Assembly (NCBI GenBank): GCA_048882385.1
Contig: JBHLRQ010000047.1
Location: 1 to 22,813, forward strand
From: Candidatus Thorarchaeota archaeon
GTDB taxonomy: Archaea > Asgardarchaeota > Thorarchaeia > Thorarchaeales > Thorarchaeaceae
Direction: 5' to 3'
Length of the DNA stretch: 22,813 bases
Shown: positions 171 to 22,813 of the stretch, piece after piece
How the letters are laid out: every line of letters begins with the position of its first letter
Numbering within the stretch: position 1 is the stretch's first letter
Notes under the pieces: generated by a model
Database searches by the model: none
Seen by the model: only the letters and a program-made list of their open reading frames with translations
Told to the model about the DNA's origin: nothing
Position numbers and translations under genes: made by a program

Positions 171-620
171 TCACTCTAGCATCTTGCGAATCATATCAGG
201 AACAAGAGCCGGTTCTGAAATGAACGGTTCAAAGTCACGAGAAAGTGCTTCATTGATTGAAAGAGATAGATTCTCTAGATTCTTGCACCAGATTAGATGA
301 CCTCGTCGTGACATTTCTTCAATTAGTTGTGATTGATGACCTTCCATGAGTGTCGTGTTTTCAACGACCACAAGGCGGAGACCTCGTTTCACACATTCCA
401 TGATGGTGCCAGCACCACCAGTACTGATGATAACATGAGCCCTGTCATATGCTGGTTTTAGAGACCTCATGAACCTGAAATATCTGAAGTTTCGTGGAAT
501 GAAAGAACCTCTTCCAATCTGAGCGACAACAGGTTCTTTAATCACTCCGGATTCAACAAGATAGTCCATTTTTTCAAGCAGAGGGTCAAAATGAGCTGTA
601 CCAACTGTCACGAAAATCAT
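171..620 (-). CDS. alg13: Alg13/PssE-like GT28 C-terminal (UDP-sugar-binding) glycosyltransferase subunit
   Basis: Starts MIFVTVGT..FD.L; ISTGGAGTIME; VVVENTTLMEGHQSQL. Start moved to ATG at 620, which overlaps the upstream stop (ATGA, 617-620). Confidence 0.88.
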   Translation of the reverse strand: MIFVTVGTAHFDPLLEKMDYLVESGVIKEPVVAQIGRGSFIPRNFRYFRFMRSLKPAYDRAHVIISTGGAGTIMECVKRGLRLVVVENTTLMEGHQSQLIEEMSRRGHLIWCKNLENLSLSINEALSRDFEPFISEPALVPDMIRKMLE

Positions 621-1099
621 AGCAATTGCCCCCCATAGATCGATCCAGATATCCTTGCCGCGAGATTTGGCCACTGAACAACGAAGAGATCAGTCTTGCC
701 CAAGAGAATGCGTCCAGTCATGGAGAGCGACTCAACTCTAGACATGCTTTCAATAAAGACCGTCTTGATACCTATGGCTCGTGCAGCGTAAAATATTGGT
801 ACTGTAAGACCTGTTCCACAACTGATGATGATAGTTGGACTAAAAAGAAGCAAGTAGAAGAAGGAAAGAACTAGTGTGACAAGCGTTCTGATAATTGACA
901 TTAATCTAGAGTCTTGGGGGAGGAGTCTTGGGGGAATCACTGGGAGTATTCTTCCGGGAATCTTGATCTTCTTAGGTGTTAGTGAGTCAAGGATTCCGAT
1001 TAGGTACAGATAGTCATACTGTGGACCGAGATAGTCTACTAAAGCAAATGTTTGTGCAGTATGTCCACCTCGTCCCAGTATTACTGCAATTCTTGTCAA
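617..1099 (-). CDS. alg14: Alg14/PssD-like GT28 N-terminal (acceptor-binding) subunit
   Basis: VILGRGGHT, ISCGTGLTVP, FIESMSRVESLSMTGRIL, FVVQWP motifs; TTG start; translationally coupled to the alg13-like gene. Confidence 0.88.
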   Translation of the reverse strand: MTRIAVILGRGGHTAQTFALVDYLGPQYDYLYLIGILDSLTPKKIKIPGRILPVIPPRLLPQDSRLMSIIRTLVTLVLSFFYLLLFSPTIIISCGTGLTVPIFYAARAIGIKTVFIESMSRVESLSMTGRILLGKTDLFVVQWPNLAARISGSIYGGQLL

Positions 1100-3552: not shown

Positions 3553-4677
3553 ATGCGAGTAAGGTCCTCTATTAAGGCTGGTATCAGCTTATTGGGAAAA
3601 CATAGATCAACATTAAAACGAAGATTTCTGATTTACATGATCGTAATGCTCATGTTTTTTCCATTCGTCTTTGTGAATCGTACTGAGATTTACAGAACAT
3701 TCCTATCTAATTTCGATGAAGAACAATATTCATACACCGAAGAAGGATTAGTCGTTACAGATTATGGTTATCAAACGGGAGTCTATATTGGTCCACACAT
3801 CACAATTCGAGCTGTATCAAATAAAGCAATTCATTATTACGATGAGATGCTAGAGGGTAATTCTACAGCAGGCCAATTCTTCAACAACTCGATTGATTTT
3901 ATCCTTGAGAAAATAAATGTCTTCAACGTTCCAACGGAGAATGGAACAAAAACCATCTGCAATTGGCCATATGAATTCTCTATCTATGGTCTTCCTGTGG
4001 GATGGACTTCAGGAATGGTTGATGCAAAAGCAATTCATACTCTTGCACTTGCATATGAGGCTTATGGAAATTCGACCTATCTCGAAATAGTAGAACAAGT
4101 TGCGGGAACATTTGAAACTCCTGTTAGTTTAGGAGGCAATCTCTATATTCTTGAGGATGGAACGTCATGGTATCCGGAGTTAATTGTCACTTCAGATCTC
4201 GACCCAAATTACAAACCTCCATTCGTTTTTAATGGATTCCTTATTGCACTTTATCATATCTATCAAGCTAACTTGATATTCAACAATAGTAGACTTGAAA
4301 GAGTTTTCAATCTTGGTGTCATATCTGCTGCTCAGAATATTCATCTTTATGATTCAGCTTACGAATGGTCAATATATCATCTTGGTTATCCTTTGAAGCT
4401 GGCGTCTAGGAATTATCATCGGATTCACATTAACATGTGTAATTTTCTATATGATTACACAAATGTAACTATCTTCAAACATTACGCAGACAAATGGGCG
4501 GGATTCGATAACCCACCTCCATTTACCTGGGAAGAAATTGTGTCACCTGAGTTCATTGGTTATGGTTTATTGATGGCGGGAATCATTTTCTTTCCTCTTC
4601 TATCAATCGATATCATTCAAACGCTGGTTCGAAGAAGAATGAAACATTCTAGCAAGAGCAACGATAATTCGCCATAA
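3553..4677 (+). CDS. Membrane-anchored D-glucuronyl C5-epimerase C-terminal-domain protein
   Basis: WTSGM..A.A...LALAY, VSLGG, WYPE, PFVFNGF, LYD...WSIYHL, ASRNYHRIHI, FKHYADKW follow the C5-epimerase motif order; hydrophobic helices at aa ~25-41 and ~334-356. Confidence 0.8.
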   Translation: MRVRSSIKAGISLLGKHRSTLKRRFLIYMIVMLMFFPFVFVNRTEIYRTFLSNFDEEQYSYTEEGLVVTDYGYQTGVYIGPHITIRAVSNKAIHYYDEMLEGNSTAGQFFNNSIDFILEKINVFNVPTENGTKTICNWPYEFSIYGLPVGWTSGMVDAKAIHTLALAYEAYGNSTYLEIVEQVAGTFETPVSLGGNLYILEDGTSWYPELIVTSDLDPNYKPPFVFNGFLIALYHIYQANLIFNNSRLERVFNLGVISAAQNIHLYDSAYEWSIYHLGYPLKLASRNYHRIHINMCNFLYDYTNVTIFKHYADKWAGFDNPPPFTWEEIVSPEFIGYGLLMAGIIFFPLLSIDIIQTLVRRRMKHSSKSNDNSP

Positions 4678-4758: not shown

Positions 4759-5865
4759 GTGAGAATTACAGTTGTCACAGGAACTCGACCTCAAATAATA
4801 AAGTCAGCACCTCTTCTTCATGAACTGGAAAGGAGGGGATTGCAGGTCACTTTTGTTCACACAGGACAGCATTATGATTTCGAGTTAGCGGATCAATTCG
4901 TGAAAGAGCTTGCAATCAAAGAACCAGACTTCAACTTGGAAGTGGGGAGCGGGACAGGGGTCTACCATACTACAGAAATCCTCACAAGATTGTCAGAGAT
5001 TCTCTCTTCAGCTAAGACAGATTACTTGATTGTCCCTGGTGACACCAATTCAGCCTTGGGCGCAGCCCTGACTGGATTCAAAATGGAGATACCAACTTGT
5101 CATTTGGAATCTGGACTTCGAAGCTTCGATATGGAAATGCAGGAAGAGATAAACAGACGCCTAATCGATCATGGAAGTGCTGCACTCTTCGCTCCTACAG
5201 ATATTGCAGTAAAGAACCTTGAGGATGAAAATGTAAGGGGAAGTATCTACAAAGTCGGAGATACGATGTATGAGATTTTGAAGAACAAGTTGAAGGAGAT
5301 CACAAATATAGCTTTCCAGAATTCTGTGCTAGAAGAGGTTGGGGCGGTAGATGATGAGTTCGCAGTTTTAACAATTCATCGCAAGGAGAATGTAGATATC
5401 CCTGCTAGATTGAAAGGAATCTTTGAGGGAATTGAGCGTTTTCAACATAAAGTGATTCTTCCTGTTCATCCAAGAACAAAGCAAAAACTTACGGATTTGG
5501 GTCTTGAATTAAGTAATAACATTGTAGCAACACCCCCAATTCCATACACCAAGATGATGGCATTAGTAAGTAAGTCTTCTCTTCTCATGACTGATTCAGG
5601 TGGACTTCAGAAAGAAGCGTATTTGCTTGATACACCCTGCGTCACGATAAGGGACAATAGCGAGTGGGTTGAAACAATTGAAGCAGGAGCGAATGTACTA
5701 GCTGGAGCAAATCCTGATGATGTTGTTCTTAAAGCTAATCAGATGTGGGGAAAGAAATTATCCAATGATCCTTCTGTATATGGTGATGGAAACGCTTCGG
5801 AGAAAATAACAGATATTCTGCTATCGAATGAGATTCGCATCAAGAATCATGTGATGCTATCATAA
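4759..5865 (+). CDS. wecB: UDP-N-acetylglucosamine 2-epimerase (non-hydrolysing)
   Basis: GTRPQIIK, HTGQHYD, PGDTNS, HLESGLRSFD, EEINR, TIHRKEN, PVHPRT, TDSGGLQKEA, YGDGNAS; GTG start after GGTGA at 4745-4749. Confidence 0.95.
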   Translation: MRITVVTGTRPQIIKSAPLLHELERRGLQVTFVHTGQHYDFELADQFVKELAIKEPDFNLEVGSGTGVYHTTEILTRLSEILSSAKTDYLIVPGDTNSALGAALTGFKMEIPTCHLESGLRSFDMEMQEEINRRLIDHGSAALFAPTDIAVKNLEDENVRGSIYKVGDTMYEILKNKLKEITNIAFQNSVLEEVGAVDDEFAVLTIHRKENVDIPARLKGIFEGIERFQHKVILPVHPRTKQKLTDLGLELSNNIVATPPIPYTKMMALVSKSSLLMTDSGGLQKEAYLLDTPCVTIRDNSEWVETIEAGANVLAGANPDDVVLKANQMWGKKLSNDPSVYGDGNASEKITDILLSNEIRIKNHVMLS

Positions 5866-10403: not shown

Positions 10404-11540
10404 TTATATGATGACTTCTTTGAGTGTTTTAAAAACAAAATCAAGCGCATTGTCAGTAAGTGCAGGATACATTGGCAAGGAAAGTATGCACTCATAGAAT
10501 CTCTCCGTTTTCGGAAGTTGTACATCTCGGTATCCAGACTCTCTATAATACGGATGCCAATAGATTGGAATGTAATGAACTTGGCAATATATCCCCTTTT
10601 TCACAAGTGATTCGAAAACGATCTTCCTTCTCTTTGGATCTGTCAGTTTTATTACATAGAGATGATAGGAGTGAAACTCATCCTCTCTTTCAGGTATGAT
10701 TTCCACCTGATTATTATAACTTTCAAAAAAGTTTGAATACAGACTTGCTATTTCCCTTCGGCGTTTGACAAATTCATCGATTCTGGAAAGTTGGCTTAGG
10801 CCGAGTGCGGCTTGTATTTCGGTCAGCCTGTAATTGAATCCCAGATATTGCATTTCTTGGAACCAAGGCTCATTGTGTTTGGTCTTGAATTTGGATTGAT
10901 CCTTAGTAATGCCATGAGTCCTAAGAGTCTTCAGCATTTCGAATAGATCTTTATTATTCGTGGAGATTAAACCACCCTCACCTGTAGTAACGTGTTTAAC
11001 TGGATGGAAACTGAATGTAGTCAAGTCAGAGTATTTACAGCTCCCAATGGAGGACCCTTTATACTTCGCTCCAATTGCATGACTAGCATCTTCAATTACA
11101 AACAGTTCGTTCTCTTTAGCAATATTTGATATTTCTTCGAGGTCACAAGGTAATCCCATGAGATGAACTGGTATGATTCCAGTGGTGCTGGAGTTAACTG
11201 CCTTCCTCACTTCTTCTGGGTCTATAAGACCCCTTTCAGTAATATCTGCAAAAACAGGAATTCCTGAATTGTAGAGCACACAGTTTGAAGTCGCAGCAAA
11301 AGACATTCCTGTTGTTACAACTTCAGATCCTTTTTGAACACCCAATGCTTGTGCAGCCAGATGAAGCGCTGCAGTCCCATTAGCAACAGCAACTGCATAT
11401 TTTGACCCTACATATTTTGCAAAGGCATCCTCAAACTTTGGAATGACTGGACCAGTGGTCAAATAGTCTGATCGAAGGACTTCTATCACTTGTTTTATGT
11501 CTTCATCAGAGATCCATTGTTTGCCATAAGGAATCTTCAT
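10404..11540 (-). CDS. pseC: UDP-4-amino-4,6-dideoxy-N-acetyl-beta-L-altrosamine transaminase (PLP, DegT family)
   Basis: IPYGKQWI..EDI..V..VLRSDYLTTGP, NGTAALH, IEDASHA, FSFHPVKHVTTGEGG, LGFNYRLTEIQAALG, QVHYIP. Confidence 0.92.
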   Translation of the reverse strand: MKIPYGKQWISDEDIKQVIEVLRSDYLTTGPVIPKFEDAFAKYVGSKYAVAVANGTAALHLAAQALGVQKGSEVVTTGMSFAATSNCVLYNSGIPVFADITERGLIDPEEVRKAVNSSTTGIIPVHLMGLPCDLEEISNIAKENELFVIEDASHAIGAKYKGSSIGSCKYSDLTTFSFHPVKHVTTGEGGLISTNNKDLFEMLKTLRTHGITKDQSKFKTKHNEPWFQEMQYLGFNYRLTEIQAALGLSQLSRIDEFVKRRREIASLYSNFFESYNNQVEIIPEREDEFHSYHLYVIKLTDPKRRKIVFESLVKKGIYCQVHYIPIYWHPYYRESGYRDVQLPKTERFYECILSLPMYPALTDNALDFVFKTLKEVII

Positions 11541-11549
11541 TGTCCCAAC

Positions 11550-12608
11550 CTACAACAAATCGGAGTTCTTGAAATATTCAAGGACTTCCTTTTTTGAGAG
11601 AAGATGATTTTTCGAAGAATATTCCTCCATTTTGGTGTTGTCCATCTTTTCTCCTTCTTTTTGATACAGCGGAGTTTCGACTTCGATGTAACGCTCAATG
11701 AGTGAGGTTATCGCATAGATATCTTCAAGTCTATAGGTCAAAGGAATCTCAAGGTTGTTGATGAGAACCTCATGAATCTTTTCACCTGGTCTAATACCAA
11801 TATCTTCGATTTCATTATCAGCATTCATGATTGTCTTCATTGCATCAATCAAATCTACTACTTTCAATGATGGAATGACAGGAACAATGACTTCTCCACC
11901 TATACTGTAGGATAAAGCCTTGAGAACTAGGTCAACTGCTTGATCAGCAGAAATAACGAAGCGTGTCATGTCTGGATGAGTCAGAGGGATTGGATTTCCA
12001 CTCATAATTTTCTCTTTGAAGAAAGGAATTATAGATCCTGTGCTTGCTAGCACATTTCCATATCTAACAGAGCTCAAAATAGATTTAGAAAATCCTTTAC
12101 TGTAATTTATCTCTGTGAAAATTCTTTCACCTAGGAGTTTGCAGGCACCGTAGGAATTCAAGGGTGAACATGCCTTGTCGGTTGAAACAAAGAGTGATTT
12201 TGAAACTTCGTTTTTCAATGCTGCATTGGCAACGTTAACTGTTCCAAGAATATTCGTCTTGATTGATTCAGTGACATTGTATTCAATCATGTCAATTCGT
12301 TTCAGAGCTGCTGCGTGAATAAGAACGTCAACATCCTCGAGTGCTCTTGAGATTCTATGGTAATCCCTAACATCTCCAATTAGATTCCGAATACGTTCAT
12401 TGTTCCCAAATAAGTTGTTGAAATGATAATGCTTGACTTCATCCCTACTGAAAACCCGCAGAGACTGAGGTTCGTATTCCAAGAACCGGGATGCAAGAGA
12501 TTTACCCAAGAATCCAGTACCGCCGGTGATTAGAACTACCTTGTCTTGTACGCATTCCCAGATATTGTCTTCAAGTTTGCTCAAGATCGATTCACTCTCA
12601 GAATTCAT
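11550..12608 (-). CDS. pseB: UDP-GlcNAc 4,6-dehydratase (inverting), PseB/FlaA1 type
   Basis: ITGGTGFLG, FSRDEVK, HAAALK, STDKA, YGACK (Tyr-type YxxxK), VRYGNV, MTRF, GIRPGEKIHE; directly upstream of pseC. Confidence 0.85.
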   Translation of the reverse strand: MNSESESILSKLEDNIWECVQDKVVLITGGTGFLGKSLASRFLEYEPQSLRVFSRDEVKHYHFNNLFGNNERIRNLIGDVRDYHRISRALEDVDVLIHAAALKRIDMIEYNVTESIKTNILGTVNVANAALKNEVSKSLFVSTDKACSPLNSYGACKLLGERIFTEINYSKGFSKSILSSVRYGNVLASTGSIIPFFKEKIMSGNPIPLTHPDMTRFVISADQAVDLVLKALSYSIGGEVIVPVIPSLKVVDLIDAMKTIMNADNEIEDIGIRPGEKIHEVLINNLEIPLTYRLEDIYAITSLIERYIEVETPLYQKEGEKMDNTKMEEYSSKNHLLSKKEVLEYFKNSDLL

Positions 12609-12745: not shown

Positions 12746-13792
12746 ATGAAAGTGATTAAGATAGGGGACGTACTTGTCGGGGGAAAGAACCCAGTTTTCA
12801 TTGTCGCAGAAATATCTGCTAATCACCTTCAAGACTACGATCTGGCAGTCCAAATAATCAATGCCGCAAAAAAAGCTGGCGCAGATGCAGTGAAGCTGCA
12901 GACTTACACAGCTGATACTATTACTCTGAATTGTGATAGTAAGTATTTTCAGCTTGACGAAACGATTTGGGAAGGCAAGACTCTCTACCAACTTTACAAA
13001 GAAGCATATACACCATGGGATTGGCAACCGAAGTTAAAAGAACATGCTGAAAGCTTAGGACTGATCTTCTTCTCATCGCCATTTGATAGAACTGCAGTAG
13101 ACTTTTTGGAAGGTCTTGATGTTCCAGCTTTCAAAGTAGCTTCTTTCGAAATCACTGATATTCCTTTGATCGAATATATAGCATCCAAAAAGAAACCAGT
13201 CATAATTTCAACTGGAATTGCTGAGCCTAGTGACATAGAAACAGCAATTGAAGCTTGCAAGAAGGAAGGAAATGATGAGATCATCTTACTGAAATGCACA
13301 TCTGCGTACCCAACACCTCTCTCCGATGTCAACCTTCAAACACTGCCAGATCTTTCTACTCGTTTCAACACTCTCACAGGATTATCAGATCATACATTGG
13401 GAATTTCTGTACCAGTTGCAGCTGTCTCCCTAGGTGCATGTCTGATAGAAAAACATCTGACACTGAAGAGAGAGTTAGGTGGACCTGATGCTGAGTTTTC
13501 ACTTGAACCTCATGAGTTTGAGAGTATGGTGAAAACAATCAGAGAAGTTGAGGAAGCATTGGGTGAAGTATCTTACACATTGACTGAGAAGATGAAGAGA
13601 AGCCGTAAGTTCTCCCGTTCATTGTTTGTTACAGAGGACATCAGAAAGGGTGAAATGTTTACTGATGCAAACGTTAGGTCAGTCAGGCCAGGATATGGTC
13701 TTCATCCCAAGTTTCAGGATAAGGTGTTAGGTAAGCGAGCAACAAAAGACCTCAAGAAAGGAACGCCGCTCAATTGGGATATGCTTGAATGA
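12746..13792 (+). CDS. pseI: Pseudaminic acid synthase (NeuB family with C-terminal SAF domain)
   Basis: AEISANH, KLQTYTADTITL, LYKEAYTPWDW, KVASFEITDIPLI, LLKCTSAYP, GLSDHTLG, IEKH, GGPDAEFSLEP, RSL..RPGYGLHP. Confidence 0.93.
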   Translation: MKVIKIGDVLVGGKNPVFIVAEISANHLQDYDLAVQIINAAKKAGADAVKLQTYTADTITLNCDSKYFQLDETIWEGKTLYQLYKEAYTPWDWQPKLKEHAESLGLIFFSSPFDRTAVDFLEGLDVPAFKVASFEITDIPLIEYIASKKKPVIISTGIAEPSDIETAIEACKKEGNDEIILLKCTSAYPTPLSDVNLQTLPDLSTRFNTLTGLSDHTLGISVPVAAVSLGACLIEKHLTLKRELGGPDAEFSLEPHEFESMVKTIREVEEALGEVSYTLTEKMKRSRKFSRSLFVTEDIRKGEMFTDANVRSVRPGYGLHPKFQDKVLGKRATKDLKKGTPLNWDMLE

Positions 13793-13857: not shown

Positions 13858-14949
13858 CTATAGTGGATTCTTGAGTACCCATCTACTATCTTTTTGCTCG
13901 AATATTTCTCGGTTCCACATTTTTTCAACAATGTCCCAAAATTGTTTTTGGGTATAGCCGAGGAAGCTGATAAAATCGACCATAGCAATTTGGTCCAGAT
14001 TTGGATCAATCTCTCTGATCAGCCGTTTTGCCTCATCAAGTGTGATTAATCCTTCTCTAACTCGCCGACTAGCTATATCAGAAGTCCTTTGAAAACCAAA
14101 TTTGGGGTACTTCAGCCATAAATGAACCATATAGGCTTGAGAATCCATCTGTTCAAAATCCTCAATACATCCTTCTCGCTTCCATTCATGAGCGAGATCT
14201 CGGAAGCCATATCGACGAGCTACCTCTAGATTCCTCATACTACTCCATGGATAGAAATAACTCATGTAGATTACTTCGGGCAGAGGTTTGCTGTTGTCAA
14301 GTTGTATCGAACTAACCTCTGGATCTGTCAGTCCATGGTCAATCCACCATTGCCTGTCTTCTTCTAACTTGTCAGACATTGCTTTTACTACCGGAGTAGC
14401 ACTGAAAAAGTCCTCGCTAACTGTTCCGTACTCGAATGAAGAGTTTTCTCCATATATAACGAATGGAATGTCAAACTTCTGGGCAAGGAGTGTGGGAATG
14501 GTGTAGATAGCATACTCCACAAACTTCAGAGCCTCACCAGTTGTTTCAAAAGCAATCCTTGTGGCTCGTCTGAACAAATCATGATTAATTGTGTATTGAT
14601 AATGATTGAGCTTGAAGGTTTCTATCATATTCCTGAGATTGTGAGCACCAGCCTCTGTGTGAGTGAAACTGTCCGTGACAGTCACAAGTAGCGGATGCAT
14701 ATTCATCTCCTCAATCATAATATGAGCTAGGAAATGGGAGTCCTTTCCACCGCTAACTGGGATAATGCAATCATATGAACCATCAGTCTTTCGATATTTG
14801 TCACACAGTTTCCTGAGCTCTTCTTCTCGCTCCTGCCAATTTACGTCCTTGCGAGATTCATAGTTCAGGCAAGCTTGACAAATGCCATTTGAGCCGAAAA
14901 TTGATCCTGGTCTTGTGTCAGGCATTCCACATTTACTGCAGTGCTTCAT
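13858..14949 (-). CDS. N-acetyl sugar amidotransferase (PseA/WbpG/WbuX family)
   Basis: CSKC.MPDTRP...CQAC metal motif, YDCIIPVSGGKDS PP-loop, YGEN..EYG, LKYPKFGF.R, R.G.IT..EA. Confidence 0.9.
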   Translation of the reverse strand: MKHCSKCGMPDTRPGSIFGSNGICQACLNYESRKDVNWQEREEELRKLCDKYRKTDGSYDCIIPVSGGKDSHFLAHIMIEEMNMHPLLVTVTDSFTHTEAGAHNLRNMIETFKLNHYQYTINHDLFRRATRIAFETTGEALKFVEYAIYTIPTLLAQKFDIPFVIYGENSSFEYGTVSEDFFSATPVVKAMSDKLEEDRQWWIDHGLTDPEVSSIQLDNSKPLPEVIYMSYFYPWSSMRNLEVARRYGFRDLAHEWKREGCIEDFEQMDSQAYMVHLWLKYPKFGFQRTSDIASRRVREGLITLDEAKRLIREIDPNLDQIAMVDFISFLGYTQKQFWDIVEKMWNREIFEQKDSRWVLKNPL

Positions 14950-15120: not shown

Positions 15121-15747
15121 ATGGTGAAGACAACGCAGGAAGAATTCTGGGAAGGCGAGTTTGGTGATGAGTACACTTCACGCAATACTGGTGACTGGGA
15201 TGAGTTTTACAAGAAACAATGGGGAATAACTCGTACTGAACTAAATAATAAATTCCTCTCGAAACTGAGCAAAAATGCGTCTATACTTGAAGTCGGATGC
15301 AACAGAGCCAATCAGTTAATGATTCTGCATGAGCAAGGATTTGAGAATCTATGGGGTATTGATATTAATAAGAAAGCACTTCAAATCGCAAAAGAGAACA
15401 GACATTTCAATATCATTGAAGGATCAGGATTTGACATTCCTTTCAAAGACAGATACTTTGATTTGGTGTTCACAAGCGGGGTCTTAATACACATCGCTCC
15501 TGAAAACTTACCAAAAATCATCGATGAGATATATCGAGTATCAAAACGGTATATTTGGGGTTTCGAATACTTCTCAGAGGAATGCAAGGCAATTGAATAC
15601 CGAGGTCATAAGGATCGTTTGTGGAAGAATAATTTTCTCCAGCTTTATCAAGACCGTCATCCAGATTTGAAAGAAGTAAAGCAGATGAAAATCAAGTATA
15701 TAGAAACAGAAAATGTCGACATGATGTACCTTTTAGAAAAGGTCTGA
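15121..15747 (+). CDS. Pseudaminic acid biosynthesis-associated methyltransferase
   Basis: TTQEEFWEGEFGDEYTSRN, ILEVGCN, FDLVFTSGVLIHIAPE, EYF...IEYRGH...LWK. Confidence 0.88.
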   Translation: MVKTTQEEFWEGEFGDEYTSRNTGDWDEFYKKQWGITRTELNNKFLSKLSKNASILEVGCNRANQLMILHEQGFENLWGIDINKKALQIAKENRHFNIIEGSGFDIPFKDRYFDLVFTSGVLIHIAPENLPKIIDEIYRVSKRYIWGFEYFSEECKAIEYRGHKDRLWKNNFLQLYQDRHPDLKEVKQMKIKYIETENVDMMYLLEKV

Positions 15748-15750
15748 AAA

Positions 15751-16506
15751 ATGAAAATATCCTGCATCATCCAAGCAAGAGTTAGCTCAACTCGACTACC
15801 GAATAAAATCATGCTTAAGGTGTCAGGAAAGGAAATCCTAATTCACGTTGTAGAGAGAGTTCTTAGAGCCACAAAGATTGATAATGTGATAGTAGCGACA
15901 ACAACAAATCCAAGCGACAGCAGCGTTGTGAGTCTTATCAATGAATTCGATGATGATAGAGTCTCTGTAATTCGTGGGTCGGAGGAGGATGTCTTAGACA
16001 GGTATTATCAAGCTGCAATGAAGAGCAATTCAGATGTTGTAATTCGAATAACCAGTGATTGTCCGCTCATTGATTGGCAATTACTTGATAGAATGGTCAA
16101 CGAGTTTGTTGACGGGGATTTTGACTATATATCTAATGTGCTAACAAAGCGTACATATCCGCGTGGTTTAGATGTTGAAGTGTTTTCATTTGAAGTACTG
16201 AAGAAAATGTGGGAATCATGTGAAGAGAAAAGGGAACGAGAACATGTGACAACCCGTATCAGAGAGAATCCAACATTATTCAAAACAAAGAATATCCAAC
16301 AGGAAATGGACCTCTCGAATTTACGATGGACAGTCGATGAAGAAGATGATTTGAAACTCATCAAGATAATTTACGAAGAGCTATATCACAAAAAAGCAGA
16401 TTTCGGAACAAATGACATACTGGAATTGATCAAGGCAAGACCTGAACTTGCTACAATGAATGCTCATGTTGAACAACAAAAAAATGTACAAAGTGAAGCC
16501 AATTGA
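15751..16506 (+). CDS. spsF: SpsF-type acylneuraminate cytidylyltransferase (PseF role)
   Basis: IIQARVSSTRLPNK, RGSEEDVLDRY, IRITSDCP, YPRGLDVE, REHVT, RWTVDEEDD. Confidence 0.9.
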   Translation: MKISCIIQARVSSTRLPNKIMLKVSGKEILIHVVERVLRATKIDNVIVATTTNPSDSSVVSLINEFDDDRVSVIRGSEEDVLDRYYQAAMKSNSDVVIRITSDCPLIDWQLLDRMVNEFVDGDFDYISNVLTKRTYPRGLDVEVFSFEVLKKMWESCEEKREREHVTTRIRENPTLFKTKNIQQEMDLSNLRWTVDEEDDLKLIKIIYEELYHKKADFGTNDILELIKARPELATMNAHVEQQKNVQSEAN

Positions 16507-17738
16507 AATTGCGAATACGAATTGCCTCAGAAGCTGACAGCATGTTTCTATTTGATCTGAGAAACCACCCGATAGTACGAGAAGCATCTTTCAATACAAG
16601 TGAGATCTCATTAGACCAACATCAGAGTTGGTTTGAAAAAACTCTCCGAAACCCTGATACAAGTATATTCATCGGATATGACAATTCTGAAAAAAGAATA
16701 GGCATGGTTCGGTTCCAAAAGACTGGTGACAAAGCGACCATCAGTGTGGCAGTTTCTCCTTCAGTTCATGGTAAAGGCTATGGCACATCACTCCTCAAAG
16801 AGTGTTGTGTCTTGTATCTCTCTAAAGAAAATGAGGTTAACGAAATCATTGCGGAAATAAAGGAATCTAACATCAGATCAATGAAGGTCTTTGGGAAAGC
16901 AGGTTTTGTTGAAACAAAACCAGAAAATGACAAGATGAATATGAGATTGTTCAGGGTTCTTGAACATTATAGAATAGGCGTTAAGATATTCACAGTAAAC
17001 CAGGAGTCATTTGGTAAACTGAAGGAGTTCTATGAGAAGAAAATAATAGACTACGTAGAACTCTATATTGTACCAGGAGTGGTTGATAAGAAATCCCTGG
17101 ACATTCTTAAGGAAATTCCAATCATATTTCATGCTCCAAACATAAATCATGGTTTTGATCTACGGGAGAGAAATCCAGTATTTGAAGAATCATTGAATAC
17201 ACTAAAAACAATCTCAGAATATTTGGGAGAGAAAATGGTAATATTTCATCCTGGACTTGAAAGAGGAGAAGATGACATCAAGCATATCACAGCTACACTG
17301 AAAGAACTGCGCCAAGATTATGATATTATACTTGAGAATATGCCTAAGAAACCAATCAAGGGTCATAGGGGGATTATTGCTTCTCATCATGATGAATTTG
17401 AAAAGATCGTGAAAGATACAGGATCTAAAATCTGTATTGACATTGGTCACACAATTTGCAGTGCTAATCATTATCAAGTGGATGCACTGGACTATATCCA
17501 GAGATTTGTTGACCTCGGACCTTTCATGCTACATATTGGAGATGGAGTTTATTCAAGTCGCTCCGATGTTCACAAACCTCTTACTGAGGGTGATTTTCCA
17601 CTTGCGAAGATTGTCGCGTTAATACCTCCAGCGTCTACCATTACATTAGAAACTCCAAAGACCGATTTTGTATTACTCAGTGAAGATTTAGAAAACTTAC
17701 AGAGATTGAAAAATCTGATTCGTGCAAGAAATCAGTGA
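16503..17738 (+). CDS. Fusion of a PseH-like GNAT N-acetyltransferase (aa ~1-150) and an AP endonuclease 2/xylose isomerase-like TIM barrel (aa ~156-411)
   Basis: LRNHP.VR..SF....IS...H..WF, HGKGYG, N.RS...F.KAGF; then FHAP, IFHPG, LENMP, CIDIGH, HIGD, DVH, TLETP. TTG start overlaps the spsF stop. Confidence 0.85.
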   Translation: MKLRIRIASEADSMFLFDLRNHPIVREASFNTSEISLDQHQSWFEKTLRNPDTSIFIGYDNSEKRIGMVRFQKTGDKATISVAVSPSVHGKGYGTSLLKECCVLYLSKENEVNEIIAEIKESNIRSMKVFGKAGFVETKPENDKMNMRLFRVLEHYRIGVKIFTVNQESFGKLKEFYEKKIIDYVELYIVPGVVDKKSLDILKEIPIIFHAPNINHGFDLRERNPVFEESLNTLKTISEYLGEKMVIFHPGLERGEDDIKHITATLKELRQDYDIILENMPKKPIKGHRGIIASHHDEFEKIVKDTGSKICIDIGHTICSANHYQVDALDYIQRFVDLGPFMLHIGDGVYSSRSDVHKPLTEGDFPLAKIVALIPPASTITLETPKTDFVLLSEDLENLQRLKNLIRARNQ

Positions 17739-17816: not shown

Positions 17817-18845
17817 GTGACTAAGACCAAGTGGATCATGAAGCAGTATTGGCGTGTTGGTCAAATCAGAGCACTGCTGAGTCTTGTATTGGGAATGTTT
17901 GTCCTTGGAAGAGGATACTACAAATATATTCCAATTCTTGCGAATCTTGGTCTGATGGGTGCATTGATACTTGGTTCGCTCCTTGTCCTTCTATTCATGG
18001 GAGTCGGTTGGTGGTATGATGAAAAAAGCAGGATGTGGAGTCCAAAGCTGCAAGCTGTTGCAGAACGGAATCCATACCAGTACATTCCAAACTACAAGTC
18101 GATGACATATGACTATCAAGCCTTTTATGCAATAATTGCCACCATGAGAAACATCCTACGAAAAACAGGGATTGACTCTACACCAATGGATGATATCTCA
18201 AAACATATTGGTACATTCTTTGACAAGAAAGTTCGGCGCTCAGATATTTTTGGAGCAGAATCAGAAGCACTCAATTTCAATAGAAGACACCCTTTTGTTG
18301 AAGGTCAGGAATTTGAAAAACAGCGTGTTCCAATTACATCCAGATTGAAATTAGGATTTGAAACAGAAATTCTCCGACTCAACTGGATTCAAGCATTAAC
18401 AGGTCTTGTTCAAGACGTCTTGGTCTTTGGAGCACTTTACGTAACTATACTCTTTCCTGACCAAGTAACTGAGAATGGGCTAGTGCCAATTGATTACCTG
18501 TTCCTTGGAATCCTGTTCCTGTCCCTTCCCCTATTCCTCGGCCTTATAGCTGCGGGATGGTATTATGATAAGAGATTGCGAGTCTGGTCAGCAGATACTG
18601 TTGTCAAATTCGAACGCAATCCATACATGTATGTACCGGATCCAAGAAATGGTGTGATGGAGATACCATTCTTTTTGGTTCTCTTGAGAACGCTAAGTTC
18701 TCTTTTCGAGAAACAGAACTTAGACAGATTTGAGTTACAGAATATGATTCACTATTTGGAGAAGTATCAGCATTATGATGCTTCAGTGGATCAGAATATG
18801 GAAGATGCAAGAGCTCTACGAAGAGAACTCGATGTGAAATTTTAG
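17817..18845 (+). CDS. Uncharacterised membrane protein with an internal duplication (two ~170-aa units)
   Basis: Two TM-hairpin units, each followed by GW[WY]YD-x5-W-x8-ERNPY-x-Y-[IV]-P (starting aa 64 and 247); GTG start after GAGGG. Confidence 0.8.
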   Translation: MTKTKWIMKQYWRVGQIRALLSLVLGMFVLGRGYYKYIPILANLGLMGALILGSLLVLLFMGVGWWYDEKSRMWSPKLQAVAERNPYQYIPNYKSMTYDYQAFYAIIATMRNILRKTGIDSTPMDDISKHIGTFFDKKVRRSDIFGAESEALNFNRRHPFVEGQEFEKQRVPITSRLKLGFETEILRLNWIQALTGLVQDVLVFGALYVTILFPDQVTENGLVPIDYLFLGILFLSLPLFLGLIAAGWYYDKRLRVWSADTVVKFERNPYMYVPDPRNGVMEIPFFLVLLRTLSSLFEKQNLDRFELQNMIHYLEKYQHYDASVDQNMEDARALRRELDVKF

Positions 18846-18856
18846 GAGATGAAGAA

Positions 18857-19378
18857 ATGGGTTTAAAGAAATGGTTGATGAAACAGCAATGGCGGATTGT
18901 ACAAATCCGTGGAATTTGGGGACTTTTCTATGGAATCCTCTTGCTTGCAATATCGTACTTTGGTTATATTCCATTTTTTGCAGACATGGGTTCATTGGGT
19001 CCGTTTGTATTTTCAGCCGTCCTCATGTTTTCATTTCTAATCCTGGGTTATCTTTATGATAGAGTCTTCATCATGTGGGCTCCATCACAAGAAGTTAGTA
19101 TGGAGAGAAATCCATACCAATATGTACCAAGTCCAAAAGATCACATATTCTGGTTACCAATTTACTCCGTTTTGTTAAATGCAACAGAAACTCTGGCTGA
19201 ACAATTTGAAGTAGATACAAAAGAGATTGCTGACGCGAAGGAGTACTTTGCCAAGTGGCAAAAGCTTAGACCCGAGTTGAAAGAGCATATTGATATTGGA
19301 GCAGAGATGAGAGACCAGTTTATCGCAGGACACTCATTTCACGATATTGCTAAGGATTCAGATGAAGAAAACAATTGA
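18857..19378 (+). CDS. Uncharacterised membrane protein, single-unit paralog of the upstream gene
   Basis: KWLMKQQWR..QIR N-terminus and GYLYD-x5-W-x8-ERNPYQYVP from aa 64, in register with the upstream protein; AGGAG RBS; 11 bp gap. Confidence 0.82.
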   Translation: MGLKKWLMKQQWRIVQIRGIWGLFYGILLLAISYFGYIPFFADMGSLGPFVFSAVLMFSFLILGYLYDRVFIMWAPSQEVSMERNPYQYVPSPKDHIFWLPIYSVLLNATETLAEQFEVDTKEIADAKEYFAKWQKLRPELKEHIDIGAEMRDQFIAGHSFHDIAKDSDEENN

Positions 19379-19470
19379 ATTTTCGATAATTAGCAATCAT
19401 AATTCGGTAAAACCTATCTGAATTTTCTTTATATCAATTGAAATCCAGCTGAAGTTGGTTGTGAAAAATC

Positions 19471-19893
19471 ATGATTGATCAAGCTTGGTATCCATGTATA
19501 TTTGAAATTAGTTCCTCCCCTGGAAAGGTTCAGATGGGAGGACCACTATTCAGCAATGTCGATGGCACTGCATATCAGATGATGTTTCGACTCCCTCTAC
19601 CTCTAAAAAAGGGAAACCTGCGACTACATGTAGCTGGTTGCCAGATTGGTCTTTTGGGTGCGAATCCATCAAATTATGTATCTCAATTGTCCATCAACGG
19701 GATGACTCATTTGGCAATGAAAGTCATGTTTGAGTCAAAGGAGCCTGTTAACATGCAACAGCTCAAGACATACTCCATGGCACCAATGGACTGCGGTGAC
19801 TTCGAAACTGTAGCTGTTCGTGTATGGTGTACAGTAGCAGATCCATATCAGCTCCACATCACTACCATGTTGTTGAATTGTTACTACGCATAG
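19471..19893 (+). CDS. Hypothetical soluble protein, probably beta-rich
   Basis: 140-aa ORF fills the gap; ATG preceded by TTTATAT (~19428-19434) and GGTTGTGA; no family recognised. Confidence 0.7.
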   Translation: MIDQAWYPCIFEISSSPGKVQMGGPLFSNVDGTAYQMMFRLPLPLKKGNLRLHVAGCQIGLLGANPSNYVSQLSINGMTHLAMKVMFESKEPVNMQQLKTYSMAPMDCGDFETVAVRVWCTVADPYQLHITTMLLNCYYA

Positions 19894-19908
19894 TCTATCA
19901 CTTAGTTT

Positions 19909-19986
19909 GAGGGTGGAAAACTCCACCTTCATTCCTCTATTTTTGATTCTTCGAAATAGGATTAAATCTGAGAAGAAATTCAGATT
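19909..19986. repeat. Three short inverted repeats in series
   Basis: GAGGGTGGA-aaac-TCCACCTTC (19909-19930); imperfect CTATTT...AAATAG (~19936-19959); AATCTGA...TCAGATT (19965-19986). Confidence 0.45.
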
Positions 19987-19999
19987 ATACAGACCAAAA

Positions 20000-20770
20000 A
20001 TGACCAATTCAACGGAAATGAAGTATATTGATACACATTGTCATCTTGAGAATGAGGCATTTGAAAATGATAGAGAGATTGTCATCAAACAAGCATCGGA
20101 AACAGGCATATACATTATTACTTCATCGATTGACAAGGGATTATGGTTTAAGGGATTAGAGTTAGCCAAAGAGCATGGTAACGTTTATGCATCAATTGGG
20201 CTGGATCCATCAAACTATGGAGATTGCGACAAAGCAATTGATTGGATTCGAAAAAATCAGTCAGACATAATTGCAATAGGGGAGGTGGGACTAGATCATT
20301 TTAGAATCAGAGACCACTCAGAAAGAGATGAGCAGGAGAAAGCATTCAGGAAATTAATACATCTAGCAAACGAGCTAAAACTACCAATTCAAATCCACTC
20401 AAGATCAGCTGGAGCAAAAGCAATTGCAGTGCTAGAAGACTGTTCAGCAGGGTTAGTCCATATGCATGCTTTTGATGGTAGAGCAAGCTATGCTAGAATC
20501 GCATCACGCGACCTTGACTACTACTTTTCAATTCCAACCTCAGTTGTCCGGTCTCCCCAGAAAAAGAAACTCGTCAAAGCTATTGCTATTGAACGACTAC
20601 TCTTGGAAACGGATAGTCCAGTGCTTGGTTCAATGAAAGGAGAAAGGAATGTGCCAACTAATATCTCAATCGCACTTAAAGAAGTAAGTTCAATACTTCG
20701 GAGAGATGAGGAAGAGCTACGTTTACTCATACTCGAAAATACGCAACGTCTGTATAGAGAAGTCAAGTGA
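20000..20770 (+). CDS. tatD: TatD family metal-dependent nuclease/hydrolase
   Basis: IDTHCH, IGEVGLD, IHSR, HMHAF, LLETDSP. True start is probably ATG 20000 or 20018 rather than TTG 19907. Confidence 0.92.
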   Translation: MTNSTEMKYIDTHCHLENEAFENDREIVIKQASETGIYIITSSIDKGLWFKGLELAKEHGNVYASIGLDPSNYGDCDKAIDWIRKNQSDIIAIGEVGLDHFRIRDHSERDEQEKAFRKLIHLANELKLPIQIHSRSAGAKAIAVLEDCSAGLVHMHAFDGRASYARIASRDLDYYFSIPTSVVRSPQKKKLVKAIAIERLLLETDSPVLGSMKGERNVPTNISIALKEVSSILRRDEEELRLLILENTQRLYREVK

Positions 20771-20812
20771 TACAATTCATAAGTACGACATGATGTGAAC
20801 CTTTGACACACA

Positions 20813-21463
20813 ATGACGAGCATCGAGGACAGGCTTAGATTGATTGTTGAGGTTTCAACAAGGAAGGCTGCAATAAAAGAGTGGAATGATGCTGCTGCAA
20901 GCCAAAAGGTACCACTGTATAATTATCGTCTTGACCATATTGAAGAAGTTGTTGAACTGGCAAAGCATATCGCAGAGGGGACAAATGCAAACATGGAGGT
21001 TGTTGTATTGGCAGCATGGCTTCATGACCTGGCAAAACCTGGGATTGGTGGTATATCTGCTGAGCAACATGGGATAGCAAGCGCAAAGATGGCGGAGGAG
21101 ATTCTAACTGCTGAGAAGGTGCAACATGACACTATCGAAAAGGTTTCAGAGGTAATAAGAAAGCATGTGGGTTTGACTCTTAAAGAACCCCTAGAACCAA
21201 TAGAAGCACAAATTATCTGGGAAGCTGATAAGATATTGAAACTGGGAGTAATTGGGGAGTTTCAAGGTTTGCTGAACGGAGTCAGATTATTTCCGGGTAG
21301 GAATATGAAGCAAATAGCTGAAGACCAGCGGGAGTTTCTTACTTTAGCTAGAAAAATTGTAGACTCAGTGGTAACTGAAAATGGAAAAGCAATTGCTCAT
21401 GAAAGAGTAAGAACCCTTGAATTGATTTCTGAATCACTTGATAGAGAAATGCATCTAAAATGA
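20813..21463 (+). CDS. HD-domain phosphohydrolase
   Basis: H...V, LAAWLHDLAK, HG..SA, I.KH, EADKI..LG. Confidence 0.9.
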   Translation: MTSIEDRLRLIVEVSTRKAAIKEWNDAAASQKVPLYNYRLDHIEEVVELAKHIAEGTNANMEVVVLAAWLHDLAKPGIGGISAEQHGIASAKMAEEILTAEKVQHDTIEKVSEVIRKHVGLTLKEPLEPIEAQIIWEADKILKLGVIGEFQGLLNGVRLFPGRNMKQIAEDQREFLTLARKIVDSVVTENGKAIAHERVRTLELISESLDREMHLK

Positions 21464-22290
21464 GAGGAAGTGGGAGAATGTTAAGAGATATCAGAACAGT
21501 CGGGATTGTGGCAATTGGTAATGAACTTTTAGATGGGAAGGTCCTCGATACCAATTCAAACTGGATGGAGATCCGGTTGCTGGCAATTGGACTCGAAATC
21601 AAACGACTTGTGTCAGTTCGAGACGAAATTGAAGAGATAGGTCATGCAGTGGATTTTGTGCGTGAAACCTGTGATGTGATCATTACATCTGGAGGACTGG
21701 GTCCAACCCACGATGATATGACTCTGGAAGCCTTAGCAAAACATCTCAATTTGAAACTTGAAGAGAACCATGAAGCCTTCGAGATTATCAAGAGGCAATA
21801 TAAGACACTTCATGAGAATGGAATAGTACAAGCTCCTGATATGACTCCAAGCAGAAGAAAAATGGCACAACTTCCAGAAGGATCAAACGCACTTGATAAT
21901 AGGGTGGGAGGAGCTCCCGGAGTGATGATTCAGGACGGACCCACAACAATCTTTTGTTTACCAGGAGTTCCCAGTGAACTGAAATTCGTCTTTGAAGATT
22001 CCGTATTGCCTTGGCTTCTTACAAATGTTTCACAGAAGTTTCATGAGCAGGTAATTGAGTTTGGTATGAAGGACGAATCTGTTTTTGCACCAGCGATTGA
22101 TACAGTAATGAAAAAAGTACCAGGTGTCTGGATTAAATCAATGCCTAAAACCTATGGAACTTCAAAGACACTTCGAGTTTGGATCTCAGTTAGAGGAGAA
22201 GACAATTCTAAGCTGAAGCAACTTGTCAACAAAGCTATCAAGGAGTTGGAAAAAGCCACGGGGATTAAGTCAAGAACTGTTACATCTTGA
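21460..22290 (+). CDS. CinA N-terminal-like (COG1058, molybdopterin-binding fold) pyrophosphatase without PncC domain
   Basis: IGNELLDGKVLDTNS, VRD, SGGLGPTHDDMT, GAPG, LPGVPSEL. Start is 21460 (ATGA overlap) or 21478. Confidence 0.88.
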   Translation: MRGSGRMLRDIRTVGIVAIGNELLDGKVLDTNSNWMEIRLLAIGLEIKRLVSVRDEIEEIGHAVDFVRETCDVIITSGGLGPTHDDMTLEALAKHLNLKLEENHEAFEIIKRQYKTLHENGIVQAPDMTPSRRKMAQLPEGSNALDNRVGGAPGVMIQDGPTTIFCLPGVPSELKFVFEDSVLPWLLTNVSQKFHEQVIEFGMKDESVFAPAIDTVMKKVPGVWIKSMPKTYGTSKTLRVWISVRGEDNSKLKQLVNKAIKELEKATGIKSRTVTS

Positions 22291-22347
22291 CATCTGCCGA
22301 TAGATATATTCACTTGTATGTTCGGACCTCGGTGAGAGTGGGATATA

Positions 22348-22813
22348 ATGCAAGTTGATTTCTCCATTGTCTTCGAAGATATCATCGTCTACTTCATTGC
22401 AGTTTTCTATGCCGCCATAGTACTGACTATTGCGGATATAGCAAGGAAAAGACGCAACTTGGGCTCAGAGGTGACAAGGAGAATTGTCCACCTTTTCGCA
22501 GGAGCTGCTATTTGGACAGTTCCCTATTATCCGCATCCTTGGGTTGCGACTCTTGTAGCTCTGACGTTTGTTATCATGCTCGCACTTGCAAATACACAGA
22601 GATTCAGTGGTTTTTTCGCCGCTATGGCAAGACCAGAAGACTTGGAGAATAATAGTGTGCGAGGCCCCTTCTGGTATGCAGTGTCAATCACTCTCCTTAC
22701 TGGAGTGTTCACCTTTACTGGGTATCCTGCATTCTACTTTGTAGCAGCAGCGGCTATTCATATCATGATGTTTGGTGATGGAATGTCTGCTCCAATAGGA
22801 ATGAAATACGGAG
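22348..22813 (+). CDS. Partial phytol/farnesol/dolichol (polyprenol) kinase family membrane protein, running off the window
   Basis: Not in the ORF track. Manual translation MQVDFSIVFEDIIVYF...EVTRRIVHLFAG...AMARPED...RGPFWYAVS...MMFGDGMSAPIGMKYG shows the R[KR]xxH, GPxxY and GDGxxxxxGxxxG motifs; GGTGA at 22331-22335. Confidence 0.88.
   Translation, partial: MQVDFSIVFEDIIVYFIAVFYAAIVLTIADIARKRRNLGSEVTRRIVHLFAGAAIWTVPYYPHPWVATLVALTFVIMLALANTQRFSGFFAAMARPEDLENNSVRGPFWYAVSITLLTGVFTFTGYPAFYFVAAAAIHIMMFGDGMSAPIGMKYG

Follow-up and report, generated by a model that had tools for sequence, protein, structure and literature searches.

The window, a stretch of 22,813 nucleotides from a Candidatus Thorarchaeota archaeon (contig JBHLRQ010000047.1), encodes a fusion protein of 411 amino acids (aa) at 16503..17738 on the plus strand. 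Its N-terminal domain is a PseH-like acetyltransferase of the GNAT family, and its C-terminal domain is a TIM barrel of the endonuclease IV (EndoIV) type. We argue from comparative genomics only that this barrel is probably a uridine diphosphate (UDP)-sugar hydrolase, which replaces the non-homologous GT-B hydrolase PseG in the pathway of pseudaminic acid (Pse) synthesis. Related barrels appear to carry out the same step in many bacteria, including some Campylobacter and Akkermansia. The argument is built on observed properties of the barrel, namely its fold, its metal-ligand set, its gene context, its fusions, and its phyletic complementarity with PseG. A non-orthologous displacement of PseG by this barrel had been put forward in the original prediction, made from the letters of the stretch, and the fusions, the gene context, the in-place swaps, and the complementarity described below all support it.

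The open reading frame (ORF) of the fusion starts at a TTG codon, which overlaps with the stop of the cytidylyltransferase gene before it. Its database homologues are an identical protein of 411 aa and twelve others at 61-81% identity (coverage 89-100%); those that are named come from metagenome-assembled genomes (MAGs) of Thorarchaeota and Hodarchaeales. The TTG start is supported because the identical protein and homologues of 410-413 aa align over 99-100%. Pfam recognizes the GNAT family Acetyltransf_3 at residues 3-136 (2.3e-14) and AP_endonuc_2 (PF01261) at residues 234-386, where the score of 41.1 bits passes the gathering cut-off of 31.1. The GNAT domain occupies approximately residues 1-155 (16503..16967, plus strand). 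Its best-scoring family is the PseH model TIGR03585, which it matches at model positions 8-142 with 48.3 bits, below the cut-off of 93.1. The barrel domain, the candidate hydrolase, occupies residues 156-411 (16968..17738, plus strand). AlphaFold2, supplied with an alignment of 76 sequences, modelled the fusion with a pLDDT of 97.4 and a pTM of 0.93. When the two domains were compared with the PDB by Foldseek, the first retrieved GNATs, which confirmed its fold, with MJ1062 (3eo4) as the best match. The second retrieved the EndoIV/APN1 barrels 10nh (APN1), 5zhz (TMt 0.71), 2x7v (TMt 0.67), and 4hno, as well as MJ1311 (3wqo). A phmmer search of the PDB with the whole fusion found GNATs only, and the relatives of the barrel were reached there only with the family profile. 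Pfam, AlphaFold2, and Foldseek agree on the architecture that had been read at 16503-17738, a PseH-like GNAT fused to an EndoIV-type barrel.

The complete metal site of EndoIV is kept in the barrel. K161, E186, H210, H249, E278, D313, H316, H344, H357, and E383 are invariant among 76 aligned family members, and D355 and D347 are conserved in at least 90% of the same sequences. In 58 stand-alone barrels, the position of D355 is aspartate in 57 and glutamate in one. The nine residues singled out as metal ligands in the original prediction (H210, H249, E278, D313, H316, H344, D355, H357, and E383) are all among those that are invariant or at least 90% conserved. Searched against the PDB, the family profile matches MJ1311 best (4.5e-18), followed by EndoIV structures from Mycobacterium tuberculosis (3.3e-14), Thermus thermophilus, and further species, with E. 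coli 1qtw (5e-7) as the weakest. The profile alignments pair all nine ligand positions with identical residues in 5zhz, 3aam, 1xp3, and 8edd, and the alignment with 5zhz, from M. tuberculosis, runs through the motifs HAP, HGG, EN, D..H, H..D, D.H, and E. The residue-for-residue match with EndoIV that had been claimed is borne out by these pairs; in the E. coli enzyme the ligands are numbered H69 through E261, a numbering for which a literature search found no paper. The makeup of the metal site, as far as sequence can indicate, is of the phosphoesterase type.

The barrel shares with EndoIV (Nfo/Apn1) its TIM-barrel fold and the full set of nine ligands for the three metals, but it is not an Nfo orthologue, because the nfo model TIGR00587 (cut-off 129.65 bits), searched across the whole genome at E<=0.01, leaves it unmatched. 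The only match of this model is G000:C58, with 42.6 bits. The barrel also differs from EndoIV in being acidic (median pI 5.84 and net charge -6 in 58 family members), in lying in sugar clusters, and in its presumed substrate, a nucleotide sugar rather than DNA. Its domain was called as shorter, with 256 aa against the 252-312 aa of solved EndoIV/APN1 chains. MJ1311, which is the closest in sequence among the solved relatives, shares the nine ligand positions; it differs in having 293 aa and in being deposited as D-tagatose 3-epimerase-like. The CbiR model NF041277 gives the window protein only 17.4 bits (E=0.0025), far below the cut-off of 105. The MNIO model PF05114 (cut-off 25 bits) leaves the window protein unmatched at E<=0.01 and scores 19.8 bits (5.3e-4) in the homologue P0031, below the cut-off. 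NCBIfam has no model for the proteins of the barrel family, and their current database names are only 'TIM barrel protein', 'deoxyribonuclease IV', and 'GNAT family N-acetyltransferase'.

The Pse pathway in this genome has a PseG-shaped hole. The Pse genes listed in the original prediction are present, PseC and PseI with scores above their cut-offs, the PseB-like protein and the PseH-like GNAT with scores below theirs, and the cytidylyltransferase as a protein that is not a PseF equivalog. The accompanying claim that PseG is absent extends to the entire 3.70-Mb genome, which is 95.3% complete. A search with the PseG hidden Markov model TIGR03590 found nothing in the window, and its best match, on another contig, had an E-value of 0.11. 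PseG and the barrel have the same inferred step and are found in the same slots, after pseF, beside pseI, and fused to a PseH-type GNAT. They are unrelated in sequence and fold: one adopts a TIM-barrel fold and has a metal centre, and PseG is a metal-independent GT-B enzyme.

Replacement of one enzyme by the other can be seen in place. In a sister genome of the same Thorarchaeial family (G298), PseC, PseB, and PseI are 68%, 76%, and 71% identical to those of the window. Beside PseI, this genome encodes a 497-aa fusion in which PseG spans residues 15-277 (122 bits) and a PseH-like GNAT spans 348-484. This is an instance of the PseG-PseH fusions whose occurrence had been noted beforehand. Like the window protein, it unites an acetyltransferase and a nucleotide-removing enzyme in one chain; its partner is the GT-B PseG, however, and the order of domains is the reverse of the GNAT-barrel order in the window. 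Homologues of the 342-aa and 173-aa ORFs of the window follow the PseG-PseH fusion, and the window has GNAT-barrel in that slot. As the GNATs of the two fusions are only 25% identical, acetyltransferase and hydrolase seem to have been swapped together, as one unit. Comparable swaps occur in Campylobacteraceae. In four of five barrel-type genomes, 13-14 bp separate pseF from the start of the barrel. Among five PseG-type genomes, pseG begins 8 bp after pseF in two and is some 2 kb distant in three. All five barrel-type genomes have PseI, and all five have PseB, PseC, and PseF above the cut-off; none has PseG. PseH is above the cut-off in three of them and scores at best 91.7 and 64 bits in the remaining two. 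In Campylobacter gastrosuis, a compact unit of barrel, ATP-grasp, methyltransferase, and PseI genes, with the barrel first, is located between nusA and miaB.

The two enzymes also exclude each other across the PseI-positive genomes sampled. Among 121 genomes of Campylobacteraceae, 68 were PseI-positive (E<=1e-90; PseG was called at E<=1e-15), and of these 56 have PseG only, 10 have the barrel only, none has both, and 2 have neither, with PseI on contig fragments. In this sample overall, the barrel is found in 11 genomes and PseG in 56, with zero overlap; one barrel genome has no PseI match. In Verrucomicrobiota (251 genomes, 20 PseI-positive), the corresponding counts are 16, 2, 0, and 2. In Asgard archaea (301 genomes, 12 above the PseI cut-off), they are 3, 4, 0, and 5, where the barrel in one of the four barrel-only genomes is merely a fragment at a contig edge and the three PseG-like matches score 77-124 bits. 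Pooling the samples gives 100 PseI-positive genomes, 75 with PseG only, 16 with the barrel only, none with both, and 9 with neither (Fisher p=1.5e-12, or 1.1e-10 without the three centre genomes, which had been picked for carrying the barrel). The pooled p overstates the case because related genomes are not independent. The search was also made from the side of the barrel. Genomes were searched for 50 of the 79 barrel loci described below, and PseG exceeds the cut-off in one of the 50; the second-best match has 36.6 bits and covers the C-terminal half of the model only. PseI is above its cut-off in 27 of these 50 genomes, and a NeuB-like gene is present in 48. The anti-correlation of barrel and pseG proposed as a check on the displacement was accordingly found, and co-occurrence is not routine in any of the samples.

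The barrel family is large and keeps company with nonulosonate genes. A HMMER search of the full library with the barrel half returned 563 cluster representatives at E<=1e-3, of which 361 remain at E<=1e-10. Among the 150 matches listed, 45 are 394-516 aa long, and ten long members that were scanned comprise four barrel-GNAT, three GNAT-barrel, one CTP_transf_3-barrel, and two DUF559-barrel proteins. In the one-genome-per-species contigs, 175 stretches encode barrel relatives, and the neighbourhood counts cover 79 of these loci. Their bacterial hosts include Spirochaetota, Campylobacter, Akkermansia, Gastranaerophilales, Holosporaceae, Planctomycetota, and Elusimicrobia, and their archaeal hosts include Heimdall- and Thorarchaeota, Methanosarcinales, and Woesearchaeota. 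Neighbours within 10 kb of the barrel were counted by tblastn with the window's own proteins. A PseI/NeuB-like gene is found at 54 of the 79 loci, PseC at 49, PseB at 44, Epimerase_2 at 3, and a PseG-like gene at one, and the usual order is PseB-PseC-barrel-(GNAT)-PseI.

All ORFs within 8 kb were clustered for the 54 PseI-bearing loci and the window, 55 clusters together. The widespread families are barrel, PseI, and GNAT, which were merged via fusion proteins, followed by the cytidylyltransferase (46 of 55), PseC (42), and PseB (40). Next come tailoring families: PIG-L deacetylase (16), hexapeptide acyltransferase (16), aldo-keto reductase (13), GFO/IDH/MocA (10), class-III aminotransferase (9), RmlD-like (8), and WbqC (8). 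The clustering revealed no other conserved candidate for nucleotide removal in the 55 clusters and no other near-universal family without an assignment. Some bacterial clusters encode GNAT-PseI fusions (four proteins; open frames of 478-496 aa around PseI in G030, G045, and G049), so that each neighbour of the hydrolase step occurs as a fusion in one lineage or another. In the two DUF559-barrel proteins, P0113 and P0155 (405 aa each), the Vsr-like endonuclease domain DUF559 lies inside the barrel in P0113 and ahead of it in P0155; it is possibly a mobile insertion.

The fusion would act as a two-step module of the Pse pathway. The N-terminal GNAT would carry out the PseH step by acetylating the PseC product at its 4-amino group. 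The C-terminal barrel, a putative trinuclear-metal phosphoesterase descended from EndoIV/AP_endonuc_2 stock, would remove the nucleotide from UDP-2,4-diacetamido-2,4,6-trideoxy-altrose to give the free sugar, and PseI would condense this sugar with phosphoenolpyruvate. What we infer from the observations above is the substrate of the barrel, the sequence in which the two steps occur, and the chemistry. PseG cleaves the glycosidic C-O bond. The barrel may differ from it by attacking phosphorus and cleaving a P-O rather than a C-O bond. By analogy with EndoIV and CbiR, the three-metal centre could activate water for this attack. If the beta-phosphate is attacked and O1 of the sugar leaves, the products would be UDP and the free sugar. 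The other outcome would be uridine monophosphate and the sugar-1-phosphate, which the same site or a different enzyme would have to dephosphorylate in a second reaction. CbiR, a member of the AP endonuclease 2 superfamily, provides a precedent. It hydrolyses the phosphoribosyl bond of a small molecule and is inhibited by EDTA and sensitive to oxygen (PMC7733943). CbiR resembles the barrel as a case of the same superfamily recruited for a small-molecule phosphoester, with conserved metal ligands and a definition by gene context (PMC7733943); it differs in its clusters and its substrate, and the barrels score 17-27 bits with its model against the cut-off of 105.

A more far-reaching proposal can be made, and in our judgement it is evenly balanced between holding and failing as a whole. 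A large unnamed branch of the EndoIV superfamily would constitute a new class of nucleotide-sugar hydrolase that attacks the pyrophosphate with three metals, cleaving P-O and not C-O. This class would have displaced PseG in the Pse pathways, and probably in related nonulosonate pathways, of more than ten phyla. These would include Asgard archaea, a group of Campylobacter species, relatives of Akkermansia, Gastranaerophilales, and Holosporaceae.

Several observations weigh against the replacement of PseG by the barrel. Co-occurrence of the two is rare but real. In the Asgard genome G323, one cluster holds PseG (155.4 bits, just above the cut-off) 10 kb from barrel-GNAT-PseI. In a Myxococcales MAG (L018), PseB-PseC-PseF-barrel faces a group made up of PseI, a 169-aa ORF, and a PseG-like gene (116 bits). 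Both genes also occur in a Campylobacter MAG (G014), where they belong to different PseI clusters, and G165 has a PseG-like gene and a fragment of the barrel. Conversely, neither gene is present in 9 of the 100 PseI-positive genomes. G125, from the same family as the window, is 98% complete in 10 contigs and lacks PseG and the barrel genome-wide, so that either another route to the free sugar must exist or its pathway is broken. No PseI-like gene is found within 10 kb at 25 of the 79 loci, some of which are on short contigs. Spirochaete barrels show no Pse-type gene within 10 kb, and at two annotated spirochaete loci (L008 and L032) a solitary barrel is surrounded by unrelated genes; NeuB-like genes are present elsewhere in those of the 50 searched genomes that come from spirochaetes. 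The 10 barrel-type genomes of Campylobacteraceae may be one lineage and would then represent a single event. Finally, an attack on the pyrophosphate could yield the sugar-1-phosphate, and a further phosphatase would then be required.

Some of these genomes have further features of their own. The G323 cluster also contains two WbuX genes, HisH/WbuZ, a methylase, a cytidylyltransferase, a NeuB/PseI-like gene, the barrel, a GNAT, and PseC; the two WbuX paralogues and a B12-radical-SAM gene lie beside PseG. This genome has two copies of the barrel (L086, which is G323:C86, and G323:C175:11575-12336), one of them interrupted by a TAA stop codon, and it may make two different nonulosonates. The Pse cluster of G125 (L085, G125:C1:1491000-1510900) comprises a methylase, WbuX, a stand-alone GNAT, PseC, PseB, a cytidylyltransferase, and PseI. 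There may be a third means by which the sugar is freed. The neighbours of the barrel at L008 and L032 are LolA-like, SH3, GGDEF, transposase, PIN-TRAM, and IspF genes.

The barrel might act in the nonulosonate pathway with another job, as an isomerase, an epimerase, a dehydratase, or a sugar-1-phosphate phosphatase, while an unlinked housekeeping enzyme removes the nucleotide. Most of the Pfam AP_endonuc_2 family are sugar isomerases and epimerases (PMC7733943). The deposited name of MJ1311, the top sequence match in the PDB, agrees with such a role, as do the clusters of G323 and L018, where a PseG-like gene and the barrel stand together, and G125, which manages without either. The NeuB-like synthase is below the PseI cut-off in 23 of the 50 barrel genomes, and since many barrel clusters have such synthases, other stereoisomers may be made. 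This explanation nevertheless leaves the obligatory removal of the nucleotide without a gene in 49 of the 50 barrel genomes. It accounts neither for the complete lack of co-occurrence in 100 genomes nor for the in-place swaps, and the 55 clusters contain no further conserved hydrolase. Ketose epimerases and isomerases use fewer metal ligands than the nine of the EndoIV set, and the full set is conserved in the barrel family. We regard a different job in the pathway as unlikely.

Two other explanations depart further from hydrolysis of a nucleotide sugar. The barrel could be a multinuclear non-haem iron enzyme of the MbnB/TglH/ChrH kind that oxidises a sugar or a glycan, or a CbiR-like phosphodiesterase acting on another substrate. 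A weak match of the family profile to MbnB structures (E=1.6e-4), the PF05114 match in one homologue (5.3e-4), weak matches of the C. gastrosuis barrel to ApyH (8e-5) and CbiR (2.7e-6), and the CbiR match of the window protein (0.0025) all point this way, and the oxygen sensitivity of CbiR (PMC7733943) hints at iron. These scores are far below the family cut-offs (17-27 bits against 105 for CbiR), and EndoIV and MJ1311 are much closer to the barrel. Most hosts, to judge by their taxa, are anaerobes or microaerophiles, which argues against O2-dependent chemistry, and the complementarity with PseG would be unexplained. We consider this improbable. An ordinary DNA-repair EndoIV, fused to sugar genes or placed beside them by chance, would have the same fold and the same nine ligands. 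It would fit the name deoxyribonuclease IV that JGI gives to some homologues, the endonuclease-like DUF559 insert of two family members, and the lack of an nfo above the cut-off in this genome. Against it, TIGR00587 leaves the window barrel unmatched at E<=0.01, 54 of the 79 loci are in nonulosonate clusters, and the barrel is fused to GNATs and to a cytidylyltransferase. The acidity of the 58 members (median pI 5.84, net charge -6) and a distribution that tracks the presence of PseI and the absence of PseG likewise leave a DNA-repair role with very little credibility.

A known Pse step performed by an unrelated enzyme family would be novel, and the case for it is well supported by comparative genomics. 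Among the matches listed in the literature searches, no paper ties such a barrel to Pse synthesis or describes an alternative to PseG in archaea, and the matches listed for Campylobacter fetus, C. lanienae, and C. hyointestinalis contain nothing relevant to the barrel. The literature that pairs pseudaminic acid with a TIM barrel concerns the barrel of NeuB itself, and a 2026 preprint on nucleotide sugars keeps PseG as the reference enzyme. The six-step pathway of PseB, PseC, PseH, PseG, PseI, and PseF is treated as complete and guides genome annotation and the choice of anti-virulence targets. Many genomes with PseI have no PseG, and for these the barrel is a specific and testable candidate for the missing step. 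If the barrel does hydrolyse the UDP-sugar, nucleotide-sugar hydrolysis by a trinuclear metal site would be a new type of reaction for the endonuclease IV/xylose-isomerase-like superfamily. The database annotations of the family would be corrected, Pse production would become predictable in organisms that are now scored as pathway-incomplete, and a second, unrelated enzyme would be available for the chemoenzymatic synthesis of Pse sugars.

The other genes of the Pse cluster lie upstream of the fusion. PseC (10404..11540, minus strand) is an aminotransferase with 469.1 bits for TIGR03588 (cut-off 423.5). The PseB-like UDP-GlcNAc 4,6-dehydratase (11550..12608, minus strand) has 325.9 bits for TIGR03589, below the cut-off of 407.75, and matches Polysacc_synt_2 at 6.5e-88. 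The pseudaminic acid synthase PseI (12746..13792, plus strand) reaches 512.1 bits for TIGR03586 (cut-off 340). It is followed by an N-acetyl sugar amidotransferase of the WbuX type, associated with acetamidino modification (13858..14949, minus strand; TIGR03573, 301.9 bits, cut-off 203), and by a pseudaminic-acid-associated methylase (15121..15747, plus strand; TIGR03587, 201.6 bits, cut-off 112). The gene directly upstream of the fusion (15751..16506, plus strand) encodes an SpsF-like CTP_transf_3 cytidylyltransferase (PF02348, 1.2e-28), presumed to be the CMP-Pse synthetase, which scores 19 bits for the PseF equivalog.

Two conserved ORFs found only in Asgard archaea (17817..19378, plus strand) follow the hydrolase module here and in G298. 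They encode proteins of 342 and 173 aa, neither of which belongs to a Pfam or NCBIfam family, and their synteny is kept in L090 and L085. The 342-aa ORF has 103 homologues, all unnamed Asgard proteins. It is taken to be a membrane protein because its alignment shows hydrophobic segments and an internal repeat. The repeat, GWxYD...ERNPY, occurs twice, many paralogues are present in Asgard genomes, and the 173-aa ORF resembles half of the 342-aa protein. The 342-aa protein was considered as a cryptic PseG or GT-B enzyme and rejected, judging from its lack of a family, its Asgard-only homologues, and its membrane-type alignment; it could be a transporter or a glycan transferase. Together with a 140-aa ORF, also without a family, the two ORFs travel with the Pse hydrolase module (window 17817-19893; L002, L085, and L090).

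Farther downstream, a block of genes for TatD, an HD phosphohydrolase, a CinA-like protein, and an ORF without an assignment (orf155) occupies 19907-22812 of the window and recurs in L085, L088, and L090. It adjoins the Pse cluster in four Thorarchaeial genomes (G000, G125, G307, and G298), whichever hydrolase is present, and lies near the barrel at only 1-2 of the 79 other loci. As the block is conserved beside the Pse cluster regardless of the hydrolase and is rare near other barrels, its HD-domain and TatD genes were set aside as alternative phosphohydrolases and treated as housekeeping neighbours, less firmly so for G125. In G125, the HD-domain gene begins 43 bp after PseI. The genes between PseI and the TatD-HD block differ among the genomes, which suggests a variable site of insertion. 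At the other end, the window contains a split PssE/PssD glycosyltransferase pair of the Cps14G/F type (171-1099, minus strand) and, further along, genes for a glucuronyl C5-epimerase-like protein (3553-4677) and for a non-hydrolysing WecB (4759-5865). As a whole, the window forms a large island of surface-glycan genes.

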